Virus record (IMG/VR): IMGVR_UViG_2916441648_000002
Coordinates: 20,198 to 84,197 of that record
Strand: one strand, 5' to 3'
DNA: 64,000 bases
Source of the DNA: a virus
Lineage: Duplodnaviria; Caudoviricetes
A model generated the notes under the pieces. It was given only the letters and a program-made list of their open reading frames with translations, ran no database searches and was not told the origin of the DNA. The position numbers and the translations under genes are program-made. Below are positions 6,817 to 54,972 of the stretch, one piece after another (position 1 is the first letter of the stretch; every line of letters starts with the position of its first letter).

Positions 6817-7806
6817 TTACGCCAGTACGCCGATTTCCAGCGCACGATCTAAAAACCGAAACAACAGCACCAACTGGTCGCCGTGCTTCGCTTCAAATGC
6901 CACAGGATCAGCGTGCAACTCGTCGTGATGTGCTCTGCACAGCGGTATCACAAACAGGTCATGCGCTTTGGTTCCCATTCCACCCTGCCCATGGCCTATC
7001 AGGTGGTGGGGGTCGTCTGCCGGGTTATTGCAGCAACTGCATTGCTGCGACTTCACCCAGCGGGTGTACTTCTCGTTCTCCCAGCGGCGGCGCTTTGGCC
7101 TAAGCATGAAAGATTCCGGTGACTCGGGGTCTACCTTAACGGAGACAACCTTCTTCACCTTCTCCTGGAGGATTTCAGTCGCCGGTAACGACGGAACAAT
7201 GTCGCTTTCCCTCATTACGGAATTATGCGATTCAGGCTTTATCCTGAGGGCTTTGCTCGCCACTGATTCAGGAATAAGGTCAACCAGATCGTTGCGTACC
7301 ATCCACCAGCAGAACTCCGGAAGCGTCAGGGTGTGGTCTTCGCTGAATCCCAGCATAATATTCACCCTTTCGAGTAACCATTTTACCAGGTTCTGCATGG
7401 CAATTCCTGCCAGTCTTTCAGTGGTTTGTTCACGTAACTGGTTATCACAACCCCAGCAAAGACGAATGCTACCGGGTGCATGCCGCATCACGGTAAAGTC
7501 TCTGGCATGCCAGTCTGTATGAGGCCACTGACATTCAAATTTTCTTTCCAGCCAGGCATCAAGCCCATTCAGGCCACCAGCACGCTGGATAACCCTTTCA
7601 TTCTCAAAAATAGCCTGCATACTGTCATCATCTGTCAGCGGCTGGTGCGCTTCCGGAATCAGCCCAGATGGCAGGTGCAGGATTGCTTCCGAAGGCTTTT
7701 CGATCACCACCCTTCCCTGTCGGAATAACCAGAGCAGTTCGTTTCCGGGGCGGAACAGCACCACACCGGACATCGGAGCAACTTCAGGTGTCAGTATGGC
7801 TCTCAC
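6817..7806 (-). CDS. DUF968/YdfU-like protein
   Basis: C-terminal CSCC...DDPHH...PLCRAHHDELH nuclease-like domain; nin-region position. Confidence 0.8.
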   Translation of the reverse strand: MRAILTPEVAPMSGVVLFRPGNELLWLFRQGRVVIEKPSEAILHLPSGLIPEAHQPLTDDDSMQAIFENERVIQRAGGLNGLDAWLERKFECQWPHTDWHARDFTVMRHAPGSIRLCWGCDNQLREQTTERLAGIAMQNLVKWLLERVNIMLGFSEDHTLTLPEFCWWMVRNDLVDLIPESVASKALRIKPESHNSVMRESDIVPSLPATEILQEKVKKVVSVKVDPESPESFMLRPKRRRWENEKYTRWVKSQQCSCCNNPADDPHHLIGHGQGGMGTKAHDLFVIPLCRAHHDELHADPVAFEAKHGDQLVLLFRFLDRALEIGVLA

Positions 7807-8528
7807 GAAATTTGCCCCTTAGCGATATGCTCTGCCCACAGGCCGCCAATCCAGCGCACCCCCTTTGCGGTAAAGCGAGACTGGTTGAAAGCGTAGTTGG
7901 TCTGGTTGGTAGTCCCGGTCTTAACTTCAAAGCGCCCTGCTTCGATATGTTTGCTCTTCGGAGTAAGCACGCGGTTAAGTCGGTACATGATGCCGTTCTC
8001 AATGAGGAACATCGCGAACTCGGGCTCTTTGGCGTTCAGGAGCTTGGCAACCTGCCGGAACGTCATTGAGCCAGTGGCTTTAACATAGCGATCAACAAAT
8101 TCAGCCTTAGGCGCTGCTATGGCCAGTTCTTCACTCAGACGTTGCTTCTGTTCTGCAAGGTCAGCGGCAAGGCGTAGTGCTTCAGGAAGTGTTTGAGGAA
8201 CCACCATCCCGGCCCCGCTCTCCAGTTCCTGCCAGCGGTCAACAAGACGGGCGGTAAACTCTGGGCAGAGCTGCGCGACGATAACGTAGCTATCGCGCTT
8301 GTTAACTTCGTAGTAATGGTAAACCTGCTGGTTCTGGGGATGGGTGTACTGCATTGCAGCATACCCCCCAATTACGCCCGAGTTCATAAGTCGCTCGATT
8401 GTCACGCAGACGTTGCTGTGGCGAGAGTCGACCAGTTTCGCAATTTCACGGCTGGACATCGTTATTTGATGCCCCATCGCGGCGCTGTGATGGGTCGGAC
8501 ACATTACGGTGATATTCATCTGATTCAT
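7803..8528 (-). CDS. Phage antirepressor-like protein (Rha-like N-terminus, ANT/KilAC C-terminus)
   Basis: MSSREIAKL, ARLVDRWQELE, PQTLPEALRLAADL, APKAEFVD. Confidence 0.8.
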   Translation of the reverse strand: MNQMNITVMCPTHHSAAMGHQITMSSREIAKLVDSRHSNVCVTIERLMNSGVIGGYAAMQYTHPQNQQVYHYYEVNKRDSYVIVAQLCPEFTARLVDRWQELESGAGMVVPQTLPEALRLAADLAEQKQRLSEELAIAAPKAEFVDRYVKATGSMTFRQVAKLLNAKEPEFAMFLIENGIMYRLNRVLTPKSKHIEAGRFEVKTGTTNQTNYAFNQSRFTAKGVRWIGGLWAEHIAKGQIS

Positions 8529-8543
8529 GCTCTTCTCCACTTA

Positions 8544-8933
8544 TCAGGCGGCTGCACCCGCCAGAGGTTCATGTTTCTTGATCGATATCTCTACTCGCCC
8601 ACCAGGTACTTTCGGCCCCCACTCCACCAGCATTCTCTGCACCTGACTGTCATCCTCCCAGATGCCAGCGTGAGTAAGCGCATCAAACAGAGCCTTGTTG
8701 TAGTTGTCGATATCACGGCGTCGTTCGTCAGGTGGGTAAAGCATAATTTCGACGGCTGCCGGTGCAGTTGAAGGCTTGGGAAGAAAACGTAACTGCTCAA
8801 CGATAGCCACACAGGCAGCGCTTTGATATGCCCTGCCCTTGGCGCTGATCAGATGCCGGCCTTTTAACGGCCCCTTATTCGGGGCTCGCCAGTAGGTGTT
8901 TACGCTCGGCGGGAACGGGAGCACCAGTTTCAT
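8544..8933 (-). CDS. rusA: RusA-like Holliday junction resolvase
   Basis: LPFPPSVNTYWR, RRDIDNYNKALFDAL and WEDDSQV motifs. Confidence 0.9.
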   Translation of the reverse strand: MKLVLPFPPSVNTYWRAPNKGPLKGRHLISAKGRAYQSAACVAIVEQLRFLPKPSTAPAAVEIMLYPPDERRRDIDNYNKALFDALTHAGIWEDDSQVQRMLVEWGPKVPGGRVEISIKKHEPLAGAAA

Positions 8934-9250
8934 ACATTCACTCCCTGCTTTTTCAGCCATTCAACCGCGTTATCTCTGGCCTTGCCTGCACCGGATAACA
9001 GGTCTTTGATGATTGTTACAGGATCTGCATCCAGTTCCGTTTTGACGACAGTGATCCCCCTGGCAGCGCCAGGAGCAATGGAGAGATAACCTTTTTTCTT
9101 TAGCGCCTTCACATGCTCAGCAGCAGCGTTCGGTGATGAGCAACCAATCAGTTCAGCAAGCTCTATTAAAGTTGGTGGGAAGCCAACCTTCTCAATGTGA
9201 ACCTTGATAGCTTCATACACTTCACTCTGGCGCGACGTTAATTCGATCAT
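8930..9250 (-). CDS. LexA-type DNA-binding-domain protein lacking the peptidase domain
   Basis: RQ...GFPPT...SPNAAAEHVKALKKKG...GAARGI aligns by eye to the LexA N-terminal wHTH. Confidence 0.8.
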   Translation of the reverse strand: MIELTSRQSEVYEAIKVHIEKVGFPPTLIELAELIGCSSPNAAAEHVKALKKKGYLSIAPGAARGITVVKTELDADPVTIIKDLLSGAGKARDNAVEWLKKQGVNV

Positions 9251-9474
9251 GACTCGACTCCATAACGCCCGTTCAGGCGTCCGATTACGCTGTTGAACAT
9301 CACCAGACTTACGCCCATCGGTTTTACCTTCTCGTGGTACTCCTTAAGAATCGGAGGTACAACGACGTTCCAGCTTGGCTTCGGCTTCTTCTTCAGGGCT
9401 TTTTTAATGGCATCAGAGCATTGACGGGCTACATCACGCACAGCGTTTTCCTGCTCGGTTGATAGCTTCTTCAC
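9247..9474 (-). CDS. Hypothetical protein (75 aa)
   Basis: Coupled ORF; homolog at 52651-52899. Confidence 0.7.
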   Translation of the reverse strand: MKKLSTEQENAVRDVARQCSDAIKKALKKKPKPSWNVVVPPILKEYHEKVKPMGVSLVMFNSVIGRLNGRYGVES

Positions 9475-10436
9475 GCAACCTCCAAGTAAGCTCGAATGAA
9501 TTCAGCCGCGGCTTGTGCGTTTATGGCGTTACCATAGCCTTTGAGTCGGCCGACGCGGTTGCTGCTTGCCACTCTTGCCACCCCGGGCTCGACTCGTCCC
9601 ATGCGTGCGGCAGCCCCATCAACCAGCGGGAATGTGCCGGGTTCAACTGGACGCCATTTGCCATCTCGACAAAAGAGCCAGTCCGCATCTCGCCAAAAAC
9701 CGTTAACCTCAAGGGCCCGCATGTGTACGCCTGGCGGGGTAGCTGATCCAGTCTGTCCTTTCCATCCCGCTGCGCTGTCATTCCCGCCGAGTCCTTCCAG
9801 TCGCGTGAGGTTGGTGTCACCCATGCCGCCAGCACTGCAAAGTCCTGAAGGTTTGGCTGACGGCCAGCCTCCTTCCTCGCTATTACCTTTTTCCAGTCCT
9901 GGTAACAGTTTTTGACGTTGCTCGCTAATGGACTCGGCCACCCAATAAGCCCGCTCTCTGATGTGCGGAGCACCGATGCCCGCTGACGTAAACGGCACAA
10001 GCCCGAAGGCGTAGCCCATTCCTTCCAGATCTGCCTGTACAAGGTCGAACCATGTGTTTGCGTTACCGCTTGCAACCTGTTCGCCAAAGACATGCTGAGG
10101 CCTGCGCTCGCTGATGAGCTGGAAGAAGTGTGGCCAAAGGTGCCGCTCGTCAGCAAACCCATCTCCTTTGCCTGCCGCGCTGAAAGGCTGGCACGGGCAG
10201 GAGCCAGTCCAGACTGGTTTATCGTCAGGCCATCCGGCGAGGCGCAAGGAATGAGACCAGACGCCAATTCCGGCGAAGAAGTGGCACTGCGTGAATCCTC
10301 GCAGATCGTCAGGTGTGACATCTTCAATACTCCTTTCATCAACTTCGCCAGGTGCAATGTGACCGTTAGCGATCAGGTTACGCAGCCACTGAGCTGCATA
10401 GGGATCAATTTCGTTGTAATAAGCCGAGGATTTCAT
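9471..10436 (-). CDS. C5-cytosine DNA methyltransferase, alpha polypeptide (motifs I-VIII and X)
   Basis: FFAGIG, SCPCQPFS, GEQV, APHIRER and LKGYGNAI; no motif IX in this frame. Confidence 0.88.
   Translation of the reverse strand: MKSSAYYNEIDPYAAQWLRNLIANGHIAPGEVDERSIEDVTPDDLRGFTQCHFFAGIGVWSHSLRLAGWPDDKPVWTGSCPCQPFSAAGKGDGFADERHLWPHFFQLISERRPQHVFGEQVASGNANTWFDLVQADLEGMGYAFGLVPFTSAGIGAPHIRERAYWVAESISEQRQKLLPGLEKGNSEEGGWPSAKPSGLCSAGGMGDTNLTRLEGLGGNDSAAGWKGQTGSATPPGVHMRALEVNGFWRDADWLFCRDGKWRPVEPGTFPLVDGAAARMGRVEPGVARVASSNRVGRLKGYGNAINAQAAAEFIRAYLEVA
9521..10357 (-). CDS. Nested alternative-frame C5 MTase beta polypeptide (TRD plus motif IX); true start uncertain
   Basis: 278-codon frame fully inside alpha containing WPSPLAS, WVTPTSRDWKD and LNPAHSRWLMGLP. 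Confidence 0.72.
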   Translation of the reverse strand: MHLAKLMKGVLKMSHLTICEDSRSATSSPELASGLIPCASPDGLTINQSGLAPARASLSARQAKEMGLLTSGTFGHTSSSSSASAGLSMSLANRLQAVTQTHGSTLYRQIWKEWATPSGLCRLRQRASVLRTSESGLIGWPSPLASNVKNCYQDWKKVIARKEAGRQPNLQDFAVLAAWVTPTSRDWKDSAGMTAQRDGKDRLDQLPRQAYTCGPLRLTVFGEMRTGSFVEMANGVQLNPAHSRWLMGLPHAWDESSPGWQEWQAATASADSKAMVTP

Positions 10437-11092
10437 GCTGCACGCTCCTGAGGTTTGCCCATTGGAACGGCTACTGCCGGGATAAGCTCAACAGCCGGTG
10501 ATAGCGACTGATTTCCCCAGTGGTCCCAGCCTGGTGCACCGCAGCGGCTAAATAGTTCGATGCGCGGAACATCACCGTAAAGCTTCTCCAGACGGAAACG
10601 CGCCTCGGCGGGCTTTTGGCTGTGCTCACCGAGTGGACTGTAGATAACCTGCTTGATGCTGGCGCACTGGCGTTCGAGTCCATTCCCCCTGGTGGCGATC
10701 AGCAGGTCTTCGGTATTGGCTCGGGTGTAGTTCCCGCCGTTCATGCGGGTCTGTACGTTCAACAAGTCGAGGAAGTCGTAAAAGTCCTCCACTCCACCAG
10801 CCTGAAGTGCTTTGTTGATGTGCTGCTCTGCCAGAGGGTTGAACTTAACCCAGGTGAAGCCCTTCATCGTACGGACCTTAAAGCCCCATGCTTCAGACAG
10901 TTCAATCGCTTCGCGGGTATGCGTGCCGGTGAACCACATAGCCAGAACAGCATCATCAGCAGCAAGGTCCCAAACGGGGAGGCGTTTCATGTCGATAAGC
11001 TTCGTCGTGCCGTAGTGATTGGTGGCAGCGCCGTTACTTACTGTATTGCCATATTCCCAGGCTGGGTCAGCGTAAATCAGTGAGTATTTCAT
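10433..11092 (-). CDS. MT-A70 family adenine methyltransferase
   Basis: IYADPAW, GFTWVK, TEDLLIATRG, HSQKP, IELFSR and GWDHWGNQ. Confidence 0.88.
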   Translation of the reverse strand: MKYSLIYADPAWEYGNTVSNGAATNHYGTTKLIDMKRLPVWDLAADDAVLAMWFTGTHTREAIELSEAWGFKVRTMKGFTWVKFNPLAEQHINKALQAGGVEDFYDFLDLLNVQTRMNGGNYTRANTEDLLIATRGNGLERQCASIKQVIYSPLGEHSQKPAEARFRLEKLYGDVPRIELFSRCGAPGWDHWGNQSLSPAVELIPAVAVPMGKPQERAA

Positions 11093-11586
11093 CAGACGTT
11101 CCTCGCTCTGCCAGCAAGGCACCAGCCATCACCACATGGTTTAGCTCTCTGAACCATGCTCAGGCAGCGCTGGCGCTCATCCAGAATTTTTTCCCGCATC
11201 TCTTCGCTTTTGGAGCGGTTGAAGGCATCCATCAGGACCGTGGCGGCCCTCAGGAACAAACCCTTGTCAGATAATTCCTTGGCCTTCTCCATCATCGCAA
11301 CGACAGCAGGGTTTGGTGCGCTTTCCTGTTTTGGCTCAGGCATCACTTCGGCTTTTTCGACCGGGTAGCGCGGGACAATAGGCCCAATCGGACCAATTGG
11401 AGCTTTGGCGTAGTAGCGGAAGGTTGGACGTTCTCCACGGCGTTCTGCTCGTCCCAACATTGCCAGGCGGCATACCGCACGCTGAACACTGTGCAATTCA
11501 TACTCTGGCAGTGCTGCGGCGATCTCCTTATTCGTCATTCCAGGGTTATTGGCCACGAACAGTTGGATTGTTTTGAGAAAGCTCAT
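11092..11586 (-). CDS. PerC-family transcriptional regulator with N-terminal HTH
   Basis: KAKELSDKGLFLRAA...RQRCL PerC-like C-terminus. Confidence 0.7.
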   Translation of the reverse strand: MSFLKTIQLFVANNPGMTNKEIAAALPEYELHSVQRAVCRLAMLGRAERRGERPTFRYYAKAPIGPIGPIVPRYPVEKAEVMPEPKQESAPNPAVVAMMEKAKELSDKGLFLRAATVLMDAFNRSKSEEMREKILDERQRCLSMVQRAKPCGDGWCLAGRARNV

Positions 11587-12509
11587 GAGTTCGCTCCTCT
11601 GAAACCGTTGGGGACTTTGCTGTAGTCAGTGTTCTTGAAGCTGGAACGGAACACGCCATCCTCTCGGGCCCACTCTCCGTTGACGCGAGGAGGACGCCCA
11701 GCTTTGGCCCAGCTTTTCGCGGACTTCAGGTAGCCAGGGAATTTGCTAGGCTGGAAAAGAGTCTGTGGGCGGAGATAGGCTGCCATCGTCAGGTCTTCGC
11801 TCCACTTGGCGTTGCAGTAGTCCACCACCAGCGATAACTCTTCAACGGTGTAACCTTCCCCGATTCTGGCACGAATGTTTTGCAGCGAGGTTGTTGAAAC
11901 CTGATACTTGGAGTTAGTAACCTGGTTCAGGTGAACCAAAACCTGTTTAGCCTGATCGGTGATCAACACATCACGGTCTGGTTGCGGCGCAACCGGACAA
12001 ATAGGTTTTTTAATATCTGTAGTATTCTCTGTTGTATTCTCTGTAAGAACATCAGTGCAATTTGACCTGATGAGAGCGGTTCGTTTTGACCCGATGGAGC
12101 GTTTCACTTTGACCTCTTCCATCGGTTCATTTTGACCTGATGGAAGAGTGCATTTTGAACTCTTCGATTTGGTCACTTTGACCTCATCTAAAAGTTCGCT
12201 TTCGTAGTTGATCGTGTAGTAGTTAGTCATGTCGCGCTGAGACTTGTTCAGTTGCTCAACTTTGAGCACGCCGAGGTTCTTCAGTCTGGTAAATGTGCGC
12301 TTCAACGTAGACTCAGACCAGAACGGGAACTGCTCCAGCCACTGCTCGTTGGTGTTATAAATCCAGCGCACGCCGTCACGCTCCAGTCCGGAGGTGGTTT
12401 CTTTAAGCCAGTAGTTAACCTGCTGCAACGCAATGGCCTCGTTCAGGCCAATGCTGTACGCAAGGTCAGGGTTTATCACTATCGGCCGGGATGGCATCAA
12501 CAGGCTCAT
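11583..12509 (-). CDS. Replication initiation protein (O-like, conserved phage C-terminal domain)
   Basis: N-terminal wHTH, internal iterons, LRPQTLF..KFPGYL C-terminal domain. Confidence 0.85.
   Translation of the reverse strand: MSLLMPSRPIVINPDLAYSIGLNEAIALQQVNYWLKETTSGLERDGVRWIYNTNEQWLEQFPFWSESTLKRTFTRLKNLGVLKVEQLNKSQRDMTNYYTINYESELLDEVKVTKSKSSKCTLPSGQNEPMEEVKVKRSIGSKRTALIRSNCTDVLTENTTENTTDIKKPICPVAPQPDRDVLITDQAKQVLVHLNQVTNSKYQVSTTSLQNIRARIGEGYTVEELSLVVDYCNAKWSEDLTMAAYLRPQTLFQPSKFPGYLKSAKSWAKAGRPPRVNGEWAREDGVFRSSFKNTDYSKVPNGFRGANS
12061..12183. repeat. Replication origin iterons: six TTTGA(C/A)C cores at about 23-bp period
   Basis: Cores at 12061, 12085, 12108, 12131, 12154 and 12177, next to an AT-rich tract inside the rep gene. 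Confidence 0.8.
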
Positions 12510-49628: not shown

Positions 49629-50207
49629 TTAAGCACTTTCTTGCTCACTCTGCAACTTAAATCTGTCGCTATTTGTGCCAAACGCATCACAAAGTGGAGC
49701 GTACAGGATCGATTCTGCCAAACTTACCCATGTGTCGATTCGGCGTCGGCATGTGATAAGTGTCCAGTCAGGGTGTTTTGCATTCAGCTCGTTGGCCATC
49801 TGCAGTTTGCTCTTACGCAGCCGGTGACGGTCAACGATTACGCCATACAACCCACGGTATTCATCATTCATCAGGACCGAAGCAATAACACCATCCACCT
49901 TCAGACCCTCTTCATCCGAGCAGAACGCCAGGCCGCTTTTGTTTTTGCTGTCGAGGATTTCGCGCAGGTATGCTTCCAGCTCAGGTTTAGTGATGCCGGA
50001 TTTCTTCATGCGACGAAGCGCATCGTTGATTGCGGTTTTGGTAATTTTTACGGATGCAAGCAACTGGTTGAACATGTTTCCGCAGGAGCCACCGCCGATG
50101 TATGACCATCGGCCCCACATGCGGAGCTTTCCCTGTACCCAGATGCTTTCGAGAGTGCGAAGGCGAACCATCTCGCCGGATTTGCCAACTTCTGAAGGAT
50201 TGATCAT
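49629..50207 (-). CDS. DUF1133-like protein in the Q slot (putative late regulator)
   Basis: LESIWVQGKLRMWGRWS signature; sits between DUF968 and lysis where prophage 1 has Q. Confidence 0.7.
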   Translation of the reverse strand: MINPSEVGKSGEMVRLRTLESIWVQGKLRMWGRWSYIGGGSCGNMFNQLLASVKITKTAINDALRRMKKSGITKPELEAYLREILDSKNKSGLAFCSDEEGLKVDGVIASVLMNDEYRGLYGVIVDRHRLRKSKLQMANELNAKHPDWTLITCRRRIDTWVSLAESILYAPLCDAFGTNSDRFKLQSEQESA

Positions 50208-50220
50208 GTTGCGTCTCCAC

Positions 50221-51210
50221 TTACGCCAGTGCGCCGATTGCCAGCGCGCGATCTAAAAACCGAAACAACAGCGTTAACTGGTCGCCGTGCTTCGCTTCAA
50301 ATGCCACAGGATCAGCGTGCAACTCGTCGTGATGTGCTCTGCACAGCGGTATCACAAACAGGTCATGCGCTTTGGTTCCCATTCCACCCTGCCCGTGGCC
50401 TATCAGGTGGTGGGGGTCGTCTGCCGGGTTATTGCAGCAACTGCATTGCTGCGACTTCACCCAGCGGGTGTACTTCTCGTTCTCCCAGCGGCGGCGCTTT
50501 GGCCTAAGCATGAAAGATTCCGGTGACTCGGGGTCTACCTTAACGGAGACAACCTTCTTCACCTTCTCCTGGAGGATTTCAGTCGCCGGTAACGACGGAA
50601 CAATGTAGCTTTCCCTCATTACGGAACTATGCGATTCAGGCTTTATCCTGAGGGCTTTGCTCGCCACTGATTCAGGAATAAGGTCAGCCAGATCGTTGCG
50701 TACCATCCACCAGCAGAACTCCGGAAGCGTCAGGGTGTGGTCTTCGCTGAATCCCAGCATAATATTCACCCTTTCGAGTAACCATTTTACCAGGTTCTGC
50801 ATGGCAATTCCTGCCAGTCTTTCAGTGGTTTGTTCACGAAACTGGTTATCACAACCCCAGCAAAGACGAATGCTACCGGGTGCATGCCGCATCACGGTAA
50901 AGTCTCTGGCATGCCAGTCTGTATGAGGCCACTGACATTCAAATTTTCTTTCCAGCCAGGCATCAAGCCCATTCAGGCCACCAGCACGCTGGATAACCCT
51001 TTCATTCTCAAAAATAGCCTGCATACTGTCATCATCTGTCAGCGGCTGGTGCGCTTCCGGAATCAGCCCAGATGGCAGGTGCTGGATTGCTTCCGAAGGC
51101 TTTTCGATCACCACCCTTCCCTGTCGGAATAACCAGAGCAGTTCGTTTCCGGGGCGGAACAGCACCACACCGGACATCGGAGCAACTTCAGGTGTCAGTA
51201 TGGCTCTCAC
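50221..51210 (-). CDS. DUF968/YdfU-like protein
   Basis: Near-identical to 6817-7806. Confidence 0.8.
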   Translation of the reverse strand: MRAILTPEVAPMSGVVLFRPGNELLWLFRQGRVVIEKPSEAIQHLPSGLIPEAHQPLTDDDSMQAIFENERVIQRAGGLNGLDAWLERKFECQWPHTDWHARDFTVMRHAPGSIRLCWGCDNQFREQTTERLAGIAMQNLVKWLLERVNIMLGFSEDHTLTLPEFCWWMVRNDLADLIPESVASKALRIKPESHSSVMRESYIVPSLPATEILQEKVKKVVSVKVDPESPESFMLRPKRRRWENEKYTRWVKSQQCSCCNNPADDPHHLIGHGQGGMGTKAHDLFVIPLCRAHHDELHADPVAFEAKHGDQLTLLFRFLDRALAIGALA

Positions 51211-51932
51211 GAAATTTGCCCCTTAGCGATATGCTCTGCCCACAGGCCGCCAATCCAGCGCACCCCCTTTGCGGTAAAGCGAGACTGGTTGAAAGCGTAG
51301 TTGGTCTGGTTGGTAGTCCCGGTCTTAACTTCAAAGCGCCCTGCTTCGATATGTTTGCTCTTCGGAGTAAGCACGCGGTTAAGTCGGTACATGATGCCGT
51401 TCTCAATGAGGAACATCGCGAACTCGGGCTCTTTGGCGTTCAGGAGCTTGGCAACCTGCCGGAACGTCATTGAGCCAGTGGCTTTAACATAGCGATCAAC
51501 AAATTCAGCCTTAGGCGCTGCTATGGCCAGTTCTTCACTCAGACGTTGCTTCTGTTCTGCAAGGTCAGCGGCAAGGCGTAGTGCTTCAGGAAGTGTTTGA
51601 GGAACCACCATCCCGGCCCCGCTCTCTAGTTCCTGCCAGCGGTCAACAAGACGGGCGGTAAACTCCGGGCAGAGCTGCGCGACGATAACGTAGCTATCGC
51701 GCTTGTTAACTTCGTAGTAATGGTAAACCTGCTGGTTCTGGGGATGGGTGTACTGCATTGCAGCATACCCCCCAATTACGCCCGAGTTCATCAGTCGCTC
51801 GATTGTCACGCAGACGTTGCTGTGGCGAGAGTCGACCAGTTTCGCAATTTCACGGCTGGACATCGTTATTTGCTGCCCCATCGCGGCGCTGTGATGGGTC
51901 GGACACATTACGGTGATATTCATCTGATTCAT
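51207..51932 (-). CDS. Antirepressor-like protein
   Basis: Near-identical to 7803-8528. Confidence 0.8.
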   Translation of the reverse strand: MNQMNITVMCPTHHSAAMGQQITMSSREIAKLVDSRHSNVCVTIERLMNSGVIGGYAAMQYTHPQNQQVYHYYEVNKRDSYVIVAQLCPEFTARLVDRWQELESGAGMVVPQTLPEALRLAADLAEQKQRLSEELAIAAPKAEFVDRYVKATGSMTFRQVAKLLNAKEPEFAMFLIENGIMYRLNRVLTPKSKHIEAGRFEVKTGTTNQTNYAFNQSRFTAKGVRWIGGLWAEHIAKGQIS

Positions 51933-51947
51933 GCTCTTCTCCACTTA

Positions 51948-52337
51948 TCAGGCGGCTGCACCCGCCAGAGGTTCATGTTTCTTGATCGATATCTCTACTC
52001 GCCCACCCGGTACCTTCGGCCCCCACTCCACCAGCATTCTCTGCACCTGGCTGTCATCCTCCCAGATACCTGCGTGAGTGAGAGCGTCAAACAGAGCCTT
52101 GTTGTAATTGTCGATATCGCGGCGGCGTGCATCTGGCGGAAAGAGAAGGATCTCCACCGCAGCTGGTGACGATGATGGTTTAGGAAGGCAACGCAGCTGC
52201 TCAATAATCGCTGCGCAGGCCGCACTCTGATATGCCCTGCCTTTCTCACTGATAAGATGGCGGCCTTTTAACGGCCCCTTGTTTGGAGCTCGCCAGTAGG
52301 TGTTTACGCTCGGCGGGAACGGGAGCACCAGTTTCAT
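51948..52337 (-). CDS. rusA: RusA-like resolvase
   Basis: RusA motifs as in 8544-8933. Confidence 0.9.
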   Translation of the reverse strand: MKLVLPFPPSVNTYWRAPNKGPLKGRHLISEKGRAYQSAACAAIIEQLRCLPKPSSSPAAVEILLFPPDARRRDIDNYNKALFDALTHAGIWEDDSQVQRMLVEWGPKVPGGRVEISIKKHEPLAGAAA

Positions 52338-52654
52338 AAAGTCACTCCCTGCTTTTTCAGCCATTCCACCGCGTTATCTCTGGCCATGTCTCCACCGGAT
52401 AACAGGCCTTTAATGATCGATACCGGATCAGCATCCAGTTCTGTTTTGACGACGGTAATGCCCCTGGCAGCGCCAGGAGCAATGGAGATGTAACCCTTTT
52501 TCTTGAGCGCCTTCACATGCTCAGCAGCAGCGTTCTGCGATGAGCAACCAATCAGTTCAGCAAGCTCTATCAACGTTGGTGGGAAGCCAACCTTTTCGAT
52601 GTGAACCTTGATAGCTTCATACACTTCACTCTGACGCTGTGTTAATTCGATCAT
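52334..52654 (-). CDS. LexA-type DNA-binding-domain protein
   Basis: SQNAAAEHVKALKKKG; homolog of 8930-9250. Confidence 0.8.
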   Translation of the reverse strand: MIELTQRQSEVYEAIKVHIEKVGFPPTLIELAELIGCSSQNAAAEHVKALKKKGYISIAPGAARGITVVKTELDADPVSIIKGLLSGGDMARDNAVEWLKKQGVTL

Positions 52655-52899
52655 GATTCCTCCCCAATTCGGCCCTTGTAGCGTCCAAAACGACCGTTAA
52701 GTCGCCCGATGATGCTGTAGAACATCACAAGGCTCACGCCCATAGGCTTAACCTTCTCGTGATATTCCTTCAGGATCGGCGTTGCTATTGAATTCCACCC
52801 TGCAGATGGATTCTCAGTTATGGCTTTCTTAAGCGCGGTGCTGCATTGGCGAGCTACATCACGAACCGCGTTATCCTGCTCGGTTGATAGTTTGATCAT
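52651..52899 (-). CDS. Hypothetical protein (82 aa)
   Basis: Homolog of 9247-9474. Confidence 0.7.
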   Translation of the reverse strand: MIKLSTEQDNAVRDVARQCSTALKKAITENPSAGWNSIATPILKEYHEKVKPMGVSLVMFYSIIGRLNGRFGRYKGRIGEES

Positions 52900-53555
52900 G
52901 CTGCATGCTCCTGGTTATTTGTCACCGGAACAGCAATGCCGGAAATCAATTCAACCGCAGCTGACTCGGCCTGATTACCCCAATGGTCCCAGCCTGGCGC
53001 ACCGCAACGGCTAAATAGTTCGATACGCGGTACGTCACCGTAAAGCTTCTCCAGACGGAAACGCGCCTCGGCGGGCTTTTGGCTGTGCTCACCGAGTGGA
53101 CTGTAGATAACCTGCTTGATGCTGGCGCACTGGCGTTCGAGTCCATTCCCCCTGGTGGCGATCAGCAGGTCTTCGGTATTGGCTCGGGTGTAGTTCCCGC
53201 CGTTCATGCGGGTCTGTACGTTCAGCAATTCGAGGAAGTCGTAAAAGTCCTCCACTCCACCAGCCTGAAGCGCTTTGTTAATGTGTTGCTCTGCCAGAGG
53301 GTTGAACTTAACCCAGGTGAAGCCCTTCATCGTACGGACCTTAAAGCCCCATGCTTCAGCCAGTTCAATAGCTTCTCGTGTGTGCGTGCCGGTGAACCAC
53401 ATAGCCAGAACAGCATTATCTGCAGCGAGGTCCCAAACCGGTAGGCGCTTCATGTCGATAAGCTTCATCGTGCCGTAGTGGTTGTTGGCCGCACCGTTGC
53501 TGACGGTGTTCCCGTATTCCCAGGCTGGGTCAGCGTAAATCAGAGAGTATTTCAT
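52896..53555 (-). CDS. MT-A70 family adenine methyltransferase
   Basis: DPAW motif; homolog of 10433-11092. Confidence 0.88.
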   Translation of the reverse strand: MKYSLIYADPAWEYGNTVSNGAANNHYGTMKLIDMKRLPVWDLAADNAVLAMWFTGTHTREAIELAEAWGFKVRTMKGFTWVKFNPLAEQHINKALQAGGVEDFYDFLELLNVQTRMNGGNYTRANTEDLLIATRGNGLERQCASIKQVIYSPLGEHSQKPAEARFRLEKLYGDVPRIELFSRCGAPGWDHWGNQAESAAVELISGIAVPVTNNQEHAA

Positions 53556-54049
53556 CAGACGTTCCTCGCTCGGCCAGCAAGACACCATCCATCACCAGAT
53601 GGCTTAGCTCGCTGAACCATGTTCAGGCAGCGCTGACGCTCATCAAGAATTTTCCCCCGCATCTCTTCGCTTTTGGAACGGTTGAAGGCATCCATCAGGA
53701 CCGTGGCGGCCCTCAGGAACAAACCCTTGTCAGATAATTCCTTTGCCTTCTCCATCATCGCAACGACAGCAGGGTTTGGTGCGCTTTCCTGTTTTGGCTC
53801 AGGCATCACTTCGGCTTTTTCGACCGGGTAGCGCGGGACAATAGGCCCAATCGGACCAATTGGAGCTTTGGCGTAGTAGCGGAAGGTTGGACGTTCTCCA
53901 CGGCGTTCTGCTCGTCCCAACATTGCCAGGCGGCATACCGCACGCTGAACACTGTGCAATTCATACTCTGGCAGTGCTGCGGCGATCTCCTTATTCGTCA
54001 TTCCAGGGTTATTGGCCACGAACAGTTGGATTGTTTTGAGAAAGCTCAT
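53555..54049 (-). CDS. PerC-family regulator
   Basis: Near-identical to 11092-11586. Confidence 0.7.
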   Translation of the reverse strand: MSFLKTIQLFVANNPGMTNKEIAAALPEYELHSVQRAVCRLAMLGRAERRGERPTFRYYAKAPIGPIGPIVPRYPVEKAEVMPEPKQESAPNPAVVAMMEKAKELSDKGLFLRAATVLMDAFNRSKSEEMRGKILDERQRCLNMVQRAKPSGDGWCLAGRARNV

Positions 54050-54972
54050 GAGTTCGCTCCTCTGAAACCGTTGGGGACTTTGCTGTAGTCAGTGTTCTTG
54101 AAGCTGGAACGGAACACGCCATCCTCTCGGGCCCACTCTCCGTTGACGCGAGGAGGACGCCCAGCTTTGGCCCAGCTTTTCGCGGACTTCAGGTAGCCAG
54201 GGAATTTGCTAGGCTGGAAAAGAGTCTGTGGGCGGAGATAGGCTGCCATCGTCAGGTCTTCGCTCCACTTGGCGTTGCAGTAGTCCACCACCAGCGATAA
54301 CTCTTCAACGGTGTAACCTTCCCCGATTCTGGCACGAATGTTTTGCAGCGAGGTTGTTGAAACCTGATATTTGGAGTTAGTAACCTGGTTCAGGTGAACC
54401 AAAACCTGTTTAGCCTGATCGGTGATCAACACATCACGGTCTGGTTGCGGCGCAACCGGACAAATAGGTTTTTTAATATCTGTAGTATTCTCTGTTGTAT
54501 TCTCTGTAAGAACATCAGTGCAATTTGACCTGATGAGAGCGGTTCGTTTTGACCCGATGGAGCGTTTCACTTTGACCTCTTCCATCGGTTCATTTTGACC
54601 TGATGGAAGAGTGCATTTTGAACTCTTCGATTTTGTCACTTTGACCTCATCTAAAAGTTCGCTTTCGTAGTTGATCGTGTAGTAGTTAGTCATGTCGCGC
54701 TGAGACTTGTTCAGTTGCTCAACTTTGAGTACGCCGAGGTTCTTCAGGCGGGTAAATGTGCGCTTCAGCGTAGACTCAGACCAGAACGGGAACTGTTCCA
54801 GCCACTGCTCATTGGTGTTGTAAATCCAGCGCACTCCGTCACGCTCCAGTCCGGAGGTGGTTTCTTTAAGCCAGTAGTTCACCTGCTGCAACGCAATAGC
54901 CTCGTTCAGGCCAATGCTGTATGCAAGGTCAGGGTTTATCACTATCGGCCGGGATGGCATCAACAGGCTCAT
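54046..54972 (-). CDS. Replication initiation protein
   Basis: Translation identical to 11583-12509. Confidence 0.85.
   Translation of the reverse strand: MSLLMPSRPIVINPDLAYSIGLNEAIALQQVNYWLKETTSGLERDGVRWIYNTNEQWLEQFPFWSESTLKRTFTRLKNLGVLKVEQLNKSQRDMTNYYTINYESELLDEVKVTKSKSSKCTLPSGQNEPMEEVKVKRSIGSKRTALIRSNCTDVLTENTTENTTDIKKPICPVAPQPDRDVLITDQAKQVLVHLNQVTNSKYQVSTTSLQNIRARIGEGYTVEELSLVVDYCNAKWSEDLTMAAYLRPQTLFQPSKFPGYLKSAKSWAKAGRPPRVNGEWAREDGVFRSSFKNTDYSKVPNGFRGANS
54524..54646. repeat. Origin iterons
   Basis: Same six TTTGA(C/A)C cores as 12061-12183. Confidence 0.8.

Follow-up and report, generated by a model that had tools for sequence, protein, structure and literature searches.

A single stretch of prophage DNA was found to carry two genes that are read on the same strand in different frames, here termed alpha and beta. 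Each of the two frames is conserved and shows purifying selection, and beta, which lies inside alpha, has start signals of its own. Of the two products, alpha (321 aa) would correspond to the large, catalytic domain of a C5 cytosine methyltransferase, and beta (266 aa, or shorter if an internal start is used) would be made in the +1 frame from a separate ribosome-binding site. We consider it likely that the two together constitute a two-polypeptide C5 methyltransferase of the M.EcoHK31I type, present in the prophage as an orphan. A preliminary description of this DNA had proposed such a nested design for an orphan prophage methyltransferase, and sequence comparison supports the proposal through the ribosome-binding site and ATG of beta, a region selected in the beta frame only, relatives that number in the thousands, and a gap in alpha where the target-recognition domain (TRD) and motif IX would be expected. 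The assembly of the chains, the division of labor between them and the biological role of the enzyme are what we infer from this pattern.

Genomic setting

The window, by which we mean the whole 64,000-nucleotide stretch that was analyzed, is part of an 84-kb provirus record (IMG/VR IMGVR_UViG_2916441648_000002) that holds two syntenic prophages. In the first of these, alpha (9471–10436) lies immediately downstream of a gene for an MT-A70 family N6-adenine methyltransferase (10433–11122; PF05063, E 1e-22); these genes, and all features within alpha and beta described below, are on the minus strand. The gene order is replication gene, 164-aa ORF, MT-A70, alpha/beta, 75-aa ORF, LexA-type DNA-binding protein, RusA and Rha/KilAC antirepressor. 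The start of alpha shares bases with the stop of MT-A70 in an ATGA overlap (10433–10436), and the alpha stop shares bases with the GTG start of the 75-aa ORF in a GTGA overlap (9471–9474). This arrangement suggests translational coupling along the operon, in which alpha would be coupled to the upstream MT-A70 gene.

No restriction endonuclease gene was found among the neighbors of alpha/beta (MT-A70, LexA-type protein, RusA, Rha/KilAC antirepressor), and the annotation of these neighbors thus agrees with the earlier statement that a cognate restriction gene is not adjacent. A search of family members for plasmid copies linked to restriction–modification genes returned phage-like copies only. 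In the second prophage (50200–54100, corresponding to 7800–11600 in the first), the gene order is the same minus the C5 gene, and MT-A70 (52896–53588, 92% identical) is followed directly by the small downstream gene. The C5 gene is therefore confined to the first prophage, following MT-A70, as had been described, and it behaves as an insertable orphan cassette.

Alpha, the probable catalytic chain

The alpha coding sequence (321 aa plus stop) carries motifs I, IV, VI, VIII and X of the C5 DNA methyltransferases, the set that had been assigned to it previously, together with the noted absence of motif IX. Specifically, motif I (FAGIG, aa 54–58; 10263–10277) contains invariant F54 and G56 and a nearly invariant G58; motif IV (PCQPFS, aa 81–86) contains the invariant residues P81, C82 and Q83 (10188–10196), with Cys82 as the catalytic residue and the PCQ aligned to that of M.HhaI; and motif VI is GEQV (aa 118–121). 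Motif VIII (HIRER, aa 158–162; 9951–9965) was placed by translation, the list of invariant residues and the M.HhaI alignment, and motif X (GYGNAI, aa 300–305; 9522–9539) by translation and the same list. Across 73 sequences the key residues of FAGIG, PCQ, GEQV, HIRER and GYGNAI are invariant or nearly so.

Profile searches recovered the catalytic core of this chain. PF00145 matched at 50.5 bits (cut-off 22, E 2.6e-13) over aa 76–168 only, spanning profile positions 65–161 of 324, and no Pfam profile matched alpha beyond aa 168. The alpha profile aligns with M.HhaI residues 71–170, from the PCQ to motif VIII, and phrog_363 is a full-length match. Between motifs VIII and X, alpha lacks a constrained target-recognition domain or motif IX (dNN/dSN 0.99, aa 166–240). 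This part is a Gly/Ser-rich linker (codons 166–240; 9717–9941) that is free of amino acid constraint in the alpha frame (frame A), and the same DNA encodes the WxTP modules of beta. Beyond it lies a conserved block (aa 243–270, NGFWRDADWLFCRDGKWRPVEPG...; 9627–9710) that is doubly coded with beta aa 205–232, includes invariant residues and has an entropy near zero at all three codon positions. Alpha would accordingly be laid out as motifs I–VIII, an unconstrained linker that need only be read without a stop, a short conserved block, and motif X.

The N-terminal part of alpha (10188–10425, aa 5–83) shows what seems to be an unusual order of motifs, with AYYNEID..AA (motif II-like) and DERSIEDV (motif III-like) both preceding FAGIG, which itself stands shortly before the PCQ. 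Positions 25–161 of TIGR00675 align to alpha aa 6–169. The AlphaFold2 model of alpha (pLDDT 39) is too poor for interpretation, including the fold of these N-terminal motifs.

The nested frame and its start signals

With respect to beta, the preliminary description had reported a second same-strand frame that stays open for 278 codons inside alpha, and this frame is present at 9521–10357, where the ORF listing gives 278 aa from a TTG and 283 codons from stop to stop. It is the +1 frame, in which position 2 of each alpha codon is position 1 of a beta codon; the longest open run in the third frame at alpha is only 45 codons. The TTG at 10357 did not hold up as the start. The conserved start is an ATG at 10321–10319, kept in all 77 loci compared, and beta is accordingly 9521–10321, encoding 266 aa plus stop (not 278 aa) wholly inside alpha. 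In all loci the +1 frame is shut by a stop at alpha codon 21 or 22.

The ATG is preceded, at a spacing of 8 nt, by the Shine–Dalgarno sequence AAAGGAG (10330–10336), which falls within alpha codons 34–36. Its GGAG core is retained in 75 of 77 loci, and no variation is seen at the sites in codons 34, 38 and 39 that could change without altering alpha. A further AAAGGAG stands ahead of two possible internal starts, an ATG at beta aa 54 and a TTG at aa 56 (10154–10162), which are kept in 75/77 and 76/77 loci, respectively. In phage N15 the only possible start of beta is the equivalent internal ATG, behind a GGAGG with an 8-nt spacer. The conserved internal codons and the N15 start make two beta isoforms possible. 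The real N terminus of beta is uncertain, and aa 2–40 are without significant constraint (ratio 0.51, interval 0.14–1.5).

Database searches placed beta in PHROGs phrog_1008 and phrog_31772, both labeled 'DNA methyltransferase'. No Pfam or NCBIfam match was obtained, comparison with the PDB by sequence and by profile gave nothing even at E 10, and an ESM Atlas search returned unnamed viral clusters only. The AlphaFold2 model of beta has a mean pLDDT of 57, with moderate confidence only at aa 70–120 and 228–259; with this poor model Foldseek found no match at E 0.001 or better, and the best VIA-align score was Z 3.6, with unrelated rows.

WxTP modules and a motif IX-like segment

The WPSP and WVTP..RDWKD repeats reported earlier in the second frame were confirmed, and a WATP unit precedes them. 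These modules span 9812–10018 (WATP 10007–10018, WPSP 9929–9940, WVTP 9812–9823) and are followed by LNPAHSRWLMGLP, giving the order WATP, WPSP, WVTP..RDWKD, LNPAHSRWLMGLP. Related loci mostly have three, four or five WxTP units (two in one locus), and the length of alpha follows this number, at about 321, 350 and 389 aa.

The segment LNPAHSRWLMGLP (9608–9646) occupies aa 226–238 of the 266-aa form of beta, and its residues L226, P228, W233 and L234 are invariant; across 118 diverse sequences the invariant residues of beta include these four along with W99, G210 and W241. The segment and RLTPRECARLMGF of Escherichia coli Dcm have L.P.....LMG in common. When a profile of the segment was run against E. 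coli Dcm and 2000 Dcm shuffles, Dcm itself went unscored, and hhalign of the beta alignment against Dcm gave nothing; the alpha alignment matched Dcm in motifs IV–VI only. The LNP..RWLMGLP segment may thus be read as motif IX by visual resemblance, a likeness that is not statistically supported. Of the earlier phrase 'typical motif IX', the segment itself stands, whereas 'typical' describes its look and found no match in the Dcm profile test.

Selection in the two frames

The action of selection on each frame was mapped with an OLGenie-like scheme, in which the differences within 60 nearest-neighbor pairs were classed according to what they change in frame A and in the beta frame (frame B); dNN/dSN reports on frame A and dNN/dNS on frame B. 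Two control segments outside beta are constrained in frame A only: alpha codons 2–37, upstream of the beta ATG (A 0.05, B 1.8), and codons 306–320, after the beta stop (A 0.044, B 1.2). Codons 40–78, which encode beta aa 2–40, are likewise constrained in A (0.026), the value for B (0.51, 0.14–1.5) not being significant. Both frames are under selection in codons 79–165 (A 0.066; B 0.16, 0.07–0.32) and again in codons 266–304 (A 0.044, B 0.057), and codons 241–265 contain too few changes to resolve (A 0.16, 0–0.71; B 0.30, 0–4.2). In the linker, codons 166–240, selection is on B only (A 0.99, 0.43–2.1; B 0.062), with beta-altering changes accepted about 16 times less often than beta-silent ones. 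Beta is under purifying selection from approximately residue 41 to its stop.

The entropy at each position of the alpha codons follows the same map. Codons 1–75 vary at position 3, which indicates that alpha alone is coding there; codons 76–165 are quiet at all three positions; in codons 166–240 the variation peaks at alpha position 1, corresponding to beta position 3; codons 241–265 are almost invariant; and from about codon 291 the variation is again at position 3. With regard to the linker, frame A is free of stops in 77/77 loci, as compared to approximately 19% expected from beta-synonymous codon resampling, which indicates that alpha is maintained as a readable frame as far as its conserved C-terminal block and motif X.

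Conservation of the nesting across relatives

Nearly all of the homologs compared keep both frames open, a point on which the preliminary description had proposed that the nested reading be checked. Among 80 related IMG/VR loci with alpha 65–95% identical, the +1 frame is open for 270–358 codons in 76, the +2 frame reaching only 34–83 codons; in three loci (L008, L022 and L080) beta is interrupted by a stop and alpha is intact. The nesting was also seen in every full-length distant relative that was opened, namely K1ind1, N15, Erwinia, Pseudomonas, Xanthomonas, Rhodobacter and Vibrio phages and cyanophage Cr-LKS3, and beta lies inside alpha in each of the approximately 90 full-length loci examined. 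In public collections, beta-frame proteins gave more than 5450 matches among the candidates scored and 9810 clusters at 50% identity.

Comparison with N15 separates the two frames. N15 gp58 is 47% identical to the alpha of the window, and the two can be aligned toward either terminus, the linker between being unalignable; over that linker DNA, beta aligns without a break at 46% identity. As for the window sequence by itself, 76 of 20,000 synonymous-codon shuffles of alpha reach a +1 open run of 283 codons; in 5000 shuffles, the mean run was 138 codons and the longest 298. An open +1 frame is thus only moderately unlikely in this sequence alone, and the comparative evidence is decisive.

In some members an endonuclease VII/HNH domain is inserted in the reading frame of beta (P0238 and P0213; phrog_3322, E 7e-25 and 8.5e-29, and phrog_1035), which we take as an independent sign that the beta frame is read. 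In the P0238 contig (L097:1–1566), the alpha frame is open over the entire insert. The insert, of about 170 aa, lies between alpha-frame motifs VI and VIII, and alpha looks like junk there.

Several records depart from the usual layout. One (L090:1292–1696, from a record named Dunaliella viridis virus SI2) has a shortened alpha of 134 aa from which the whole catalytic core is missing; what remains is the AYYNE segment at the N terminus, together with the conserved C-terminal block and motif X. Its beta frame is still open for 105 codons, with a WPTP unit and LNPALSRWLMGLP. A search for in-frame alpha–beta fusions among 269 beta matches returned short or frame-switched hybrids only. P0216 (660 aa) is beta joined in frame to a downstream N6/N4 methyltransferase, P0127 consists of the first 25 residues of alpha followed by beta, and P0123, P0129 and P0241 begin as beta and finish with motif X of alpha. 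These database ORFs that mix frames or genes may reflect either errors of assembly or frameshift variants that occur in nature.

Alternative readings of the second frame

If beta is a real protein, its function might nonetheless be separate from that of the alpha methyltransferase, as for an overprinted accessory gene with, for example, a DNA-binding, regulatory or anti-defense role. The failure of beta to match any characterized family, the lack of statistical support for its motif IX likeness, and the endonuclease VII/HNH insert in some betas, which hints that these betas take part in DNA transactions of their own, are all in keeping with this idea. We nevertheless judge it rather unlikely, as alpha alone looks incomplete, with no constrained sequence where the TRD and motif IX belong, and the conserved elements of beta stand in canonical order between motifs VIII and X. 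Moreover, beta is nested in alpha throughout the roughly 90 full-length loci, and M.EcoHK31I, the one characterized nested case, requires both chains.

A very unlikely reading is that there is no separate beta at all, and that the locus either encodes one polypeptide whose frame changes twice by programmed shifts, from A to B near codon 166 and back to A near codon 290, or is a frameshifted pseudogene. Reading the DNA as A, B and A does give the canonical order of motifs I–VIII, variable region, IX and X, and P0123, P0129 and P0241 change frame at these very points. However, constraint on frame B begins about 90 codons before that on frame A lapses, the two frames are constrained together on both sides of the linker (codons 79–165 and 266–304), frame A is open through the linker in all 77 loci, and beta has its own conserved Shine–Dalgarno sequence and ATG. 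The alignment is also at its most variable, and richest in indels, across the supposed shift zone, which hence holds no conserved slippery signal. This reading was therefore rejected on the selection map, the start signals of beta, the open frame A and the variable shift zone.

The notion that frame B is non-coding, open by chance or composition and conserved in appearance only through alpha, has in its favor the permissive composition seen in the shuffles and the unconstrained beta aa 2–40, but was rejected as scarcely credible because it is contradicted by the roughly 16-fold deficit of beta-altering changes in a linker where alpha is unconstrained and by the known endonuclease domain that some members carry in the beta frame, along with the conservation of beta relative to N15 where alpha is not conserved and the conserved Shine–Dalgarno sequence and ATG.

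Comparison with known split C5 enzymes

The nested alpha/beta design of M.EcoHK31I was reportedly described by Lee, Kam and Shaw in 1995. This C5 enzyme (YGGCCR, E. coli HK31) consists of alpha and beta chains, with beta nested in the alpha gene (PMC2836561; PMC3404938); its activity requires both chains, and internal beta starts have been reported (PMC2836561). Compared by published description, the window pair resembles it in that beta lies wholly inside the alpha gene on the same strand in another frame, a motif IX-like element is found in beta, and internal beta starts are possible in both. The differences are that the window gene is a prophage orphan without a restriction gene, and that its beta is longer (266 versus 176 aa) and has a modular WxTP region. 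In addition, the TRD of M.EcoHK31I has been assigned to alpha, whereas here most of that part of alpha is linker without constraint, and it is beta that holds the variable modules. The name M.EcoHK31I appeared on none of the database matches retrieved for the family.

A second precedent is M.AquI, whose genes are separate rather than nested. In this two-subunit C5 enzyme (CYCGRG), the smaller chain carries motifs IX and X (PMC3404938). The window pair would similarly be a C5 enzyme divided in its variable region, one chain being catalytic and the smaller one bearing motif IX (here motif IX-like), but its motif X (GYGNAI) belongs to alpha, inside which beta is nested. Closer relatives are the phage orphan C5 methyltransferases N15 gp58, the epsilon15 cytosine methylase and K1ind1 ORF29 (PHROG 363), which belong to the same family as the window alpha; their records differ in that one frame is annotated in most.

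Building from these comparisons, a two-chain enzyme of the M.EcoHK31I type would operate as follows. Beta would supply the parts that alpha is missing, namely a helix resembling motif IX and a modular, variable WxTP region that might recognize the target, and the two chains would most likely combine to form a single active enzyme, as in M.EcoHK31I. Alongside the upstream MT-A70 gene, the enzyme would methylate phage DNA, in self-protection against host restriction, or host DNA.

Annotation and significance

The preliminary description had also held that standard annotation would miss beta. This is true of most records, which give one frame only, but not of all, as a few GenBank records list the inner ORF, either as an 'Mte8-like protein' or as one of two 'DNA methyltransferase' CDS. 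In Burkholderia phage records (among L087, L094, L092 and L003), the beta frame is labeled 'putative metabolic enzyme' or 'DNA repair protein'; in the cyanophage Cr-LKS3 record, beta is the 'methyltransferase' and alpha is omitted; and in an E. coli RefSeq genome the locus is given as two incomplete pseudogene pieces. Pipelines thus report a single frame, which is not always the right one, or mark the locus as defective, and as a consequence of single-frame annotation the second subunit of the putative enzyme is missing from most records.

The nested design as such has been known since M.EcoHK31I (1995); what is new here is the regional selection map, the conserved start of beta and the variants with an endonuclease insert. 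No paper describing this nested arrangement in phage methyltransferases was found in the literature searched. In bacteria and their viruses, long overlaps between genes on the same strand are uncommon and contested; the alpha/beta pair shows clear signs of dual-frame selection over approximately 800 bases, recurring in thousands of phage and prophage genomes.

More tentatively, a very large family of orphan C5 methyltransferases in phages might follow the nested design as a rule, with beta serving as a modular target-recognition subunit that evolves by in-frame insertions and deletions over an unconstrained alpha linker. Such a rule would take in thousands of clusters, from enterobacterial to cyanobacterial phages, with WxTP units mostly in three to five copies and sometimes an endonuclease insert. 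If it is true, these genes would rank among the largest and longest (approximately 800 nt) same-strand overlapping pairs under dual purifying selection in prokaryotic viruses, and the target-recognition role given to the alpha chain of M.EcoHK31I would merit re-examination. If beta does carry target recognition, neither specificity typing nor functional expression would be possible from the annotated gene alone, which would bear on the reading of phage methylomes, on anti-restriction biology and on engineered split methyltransferases.
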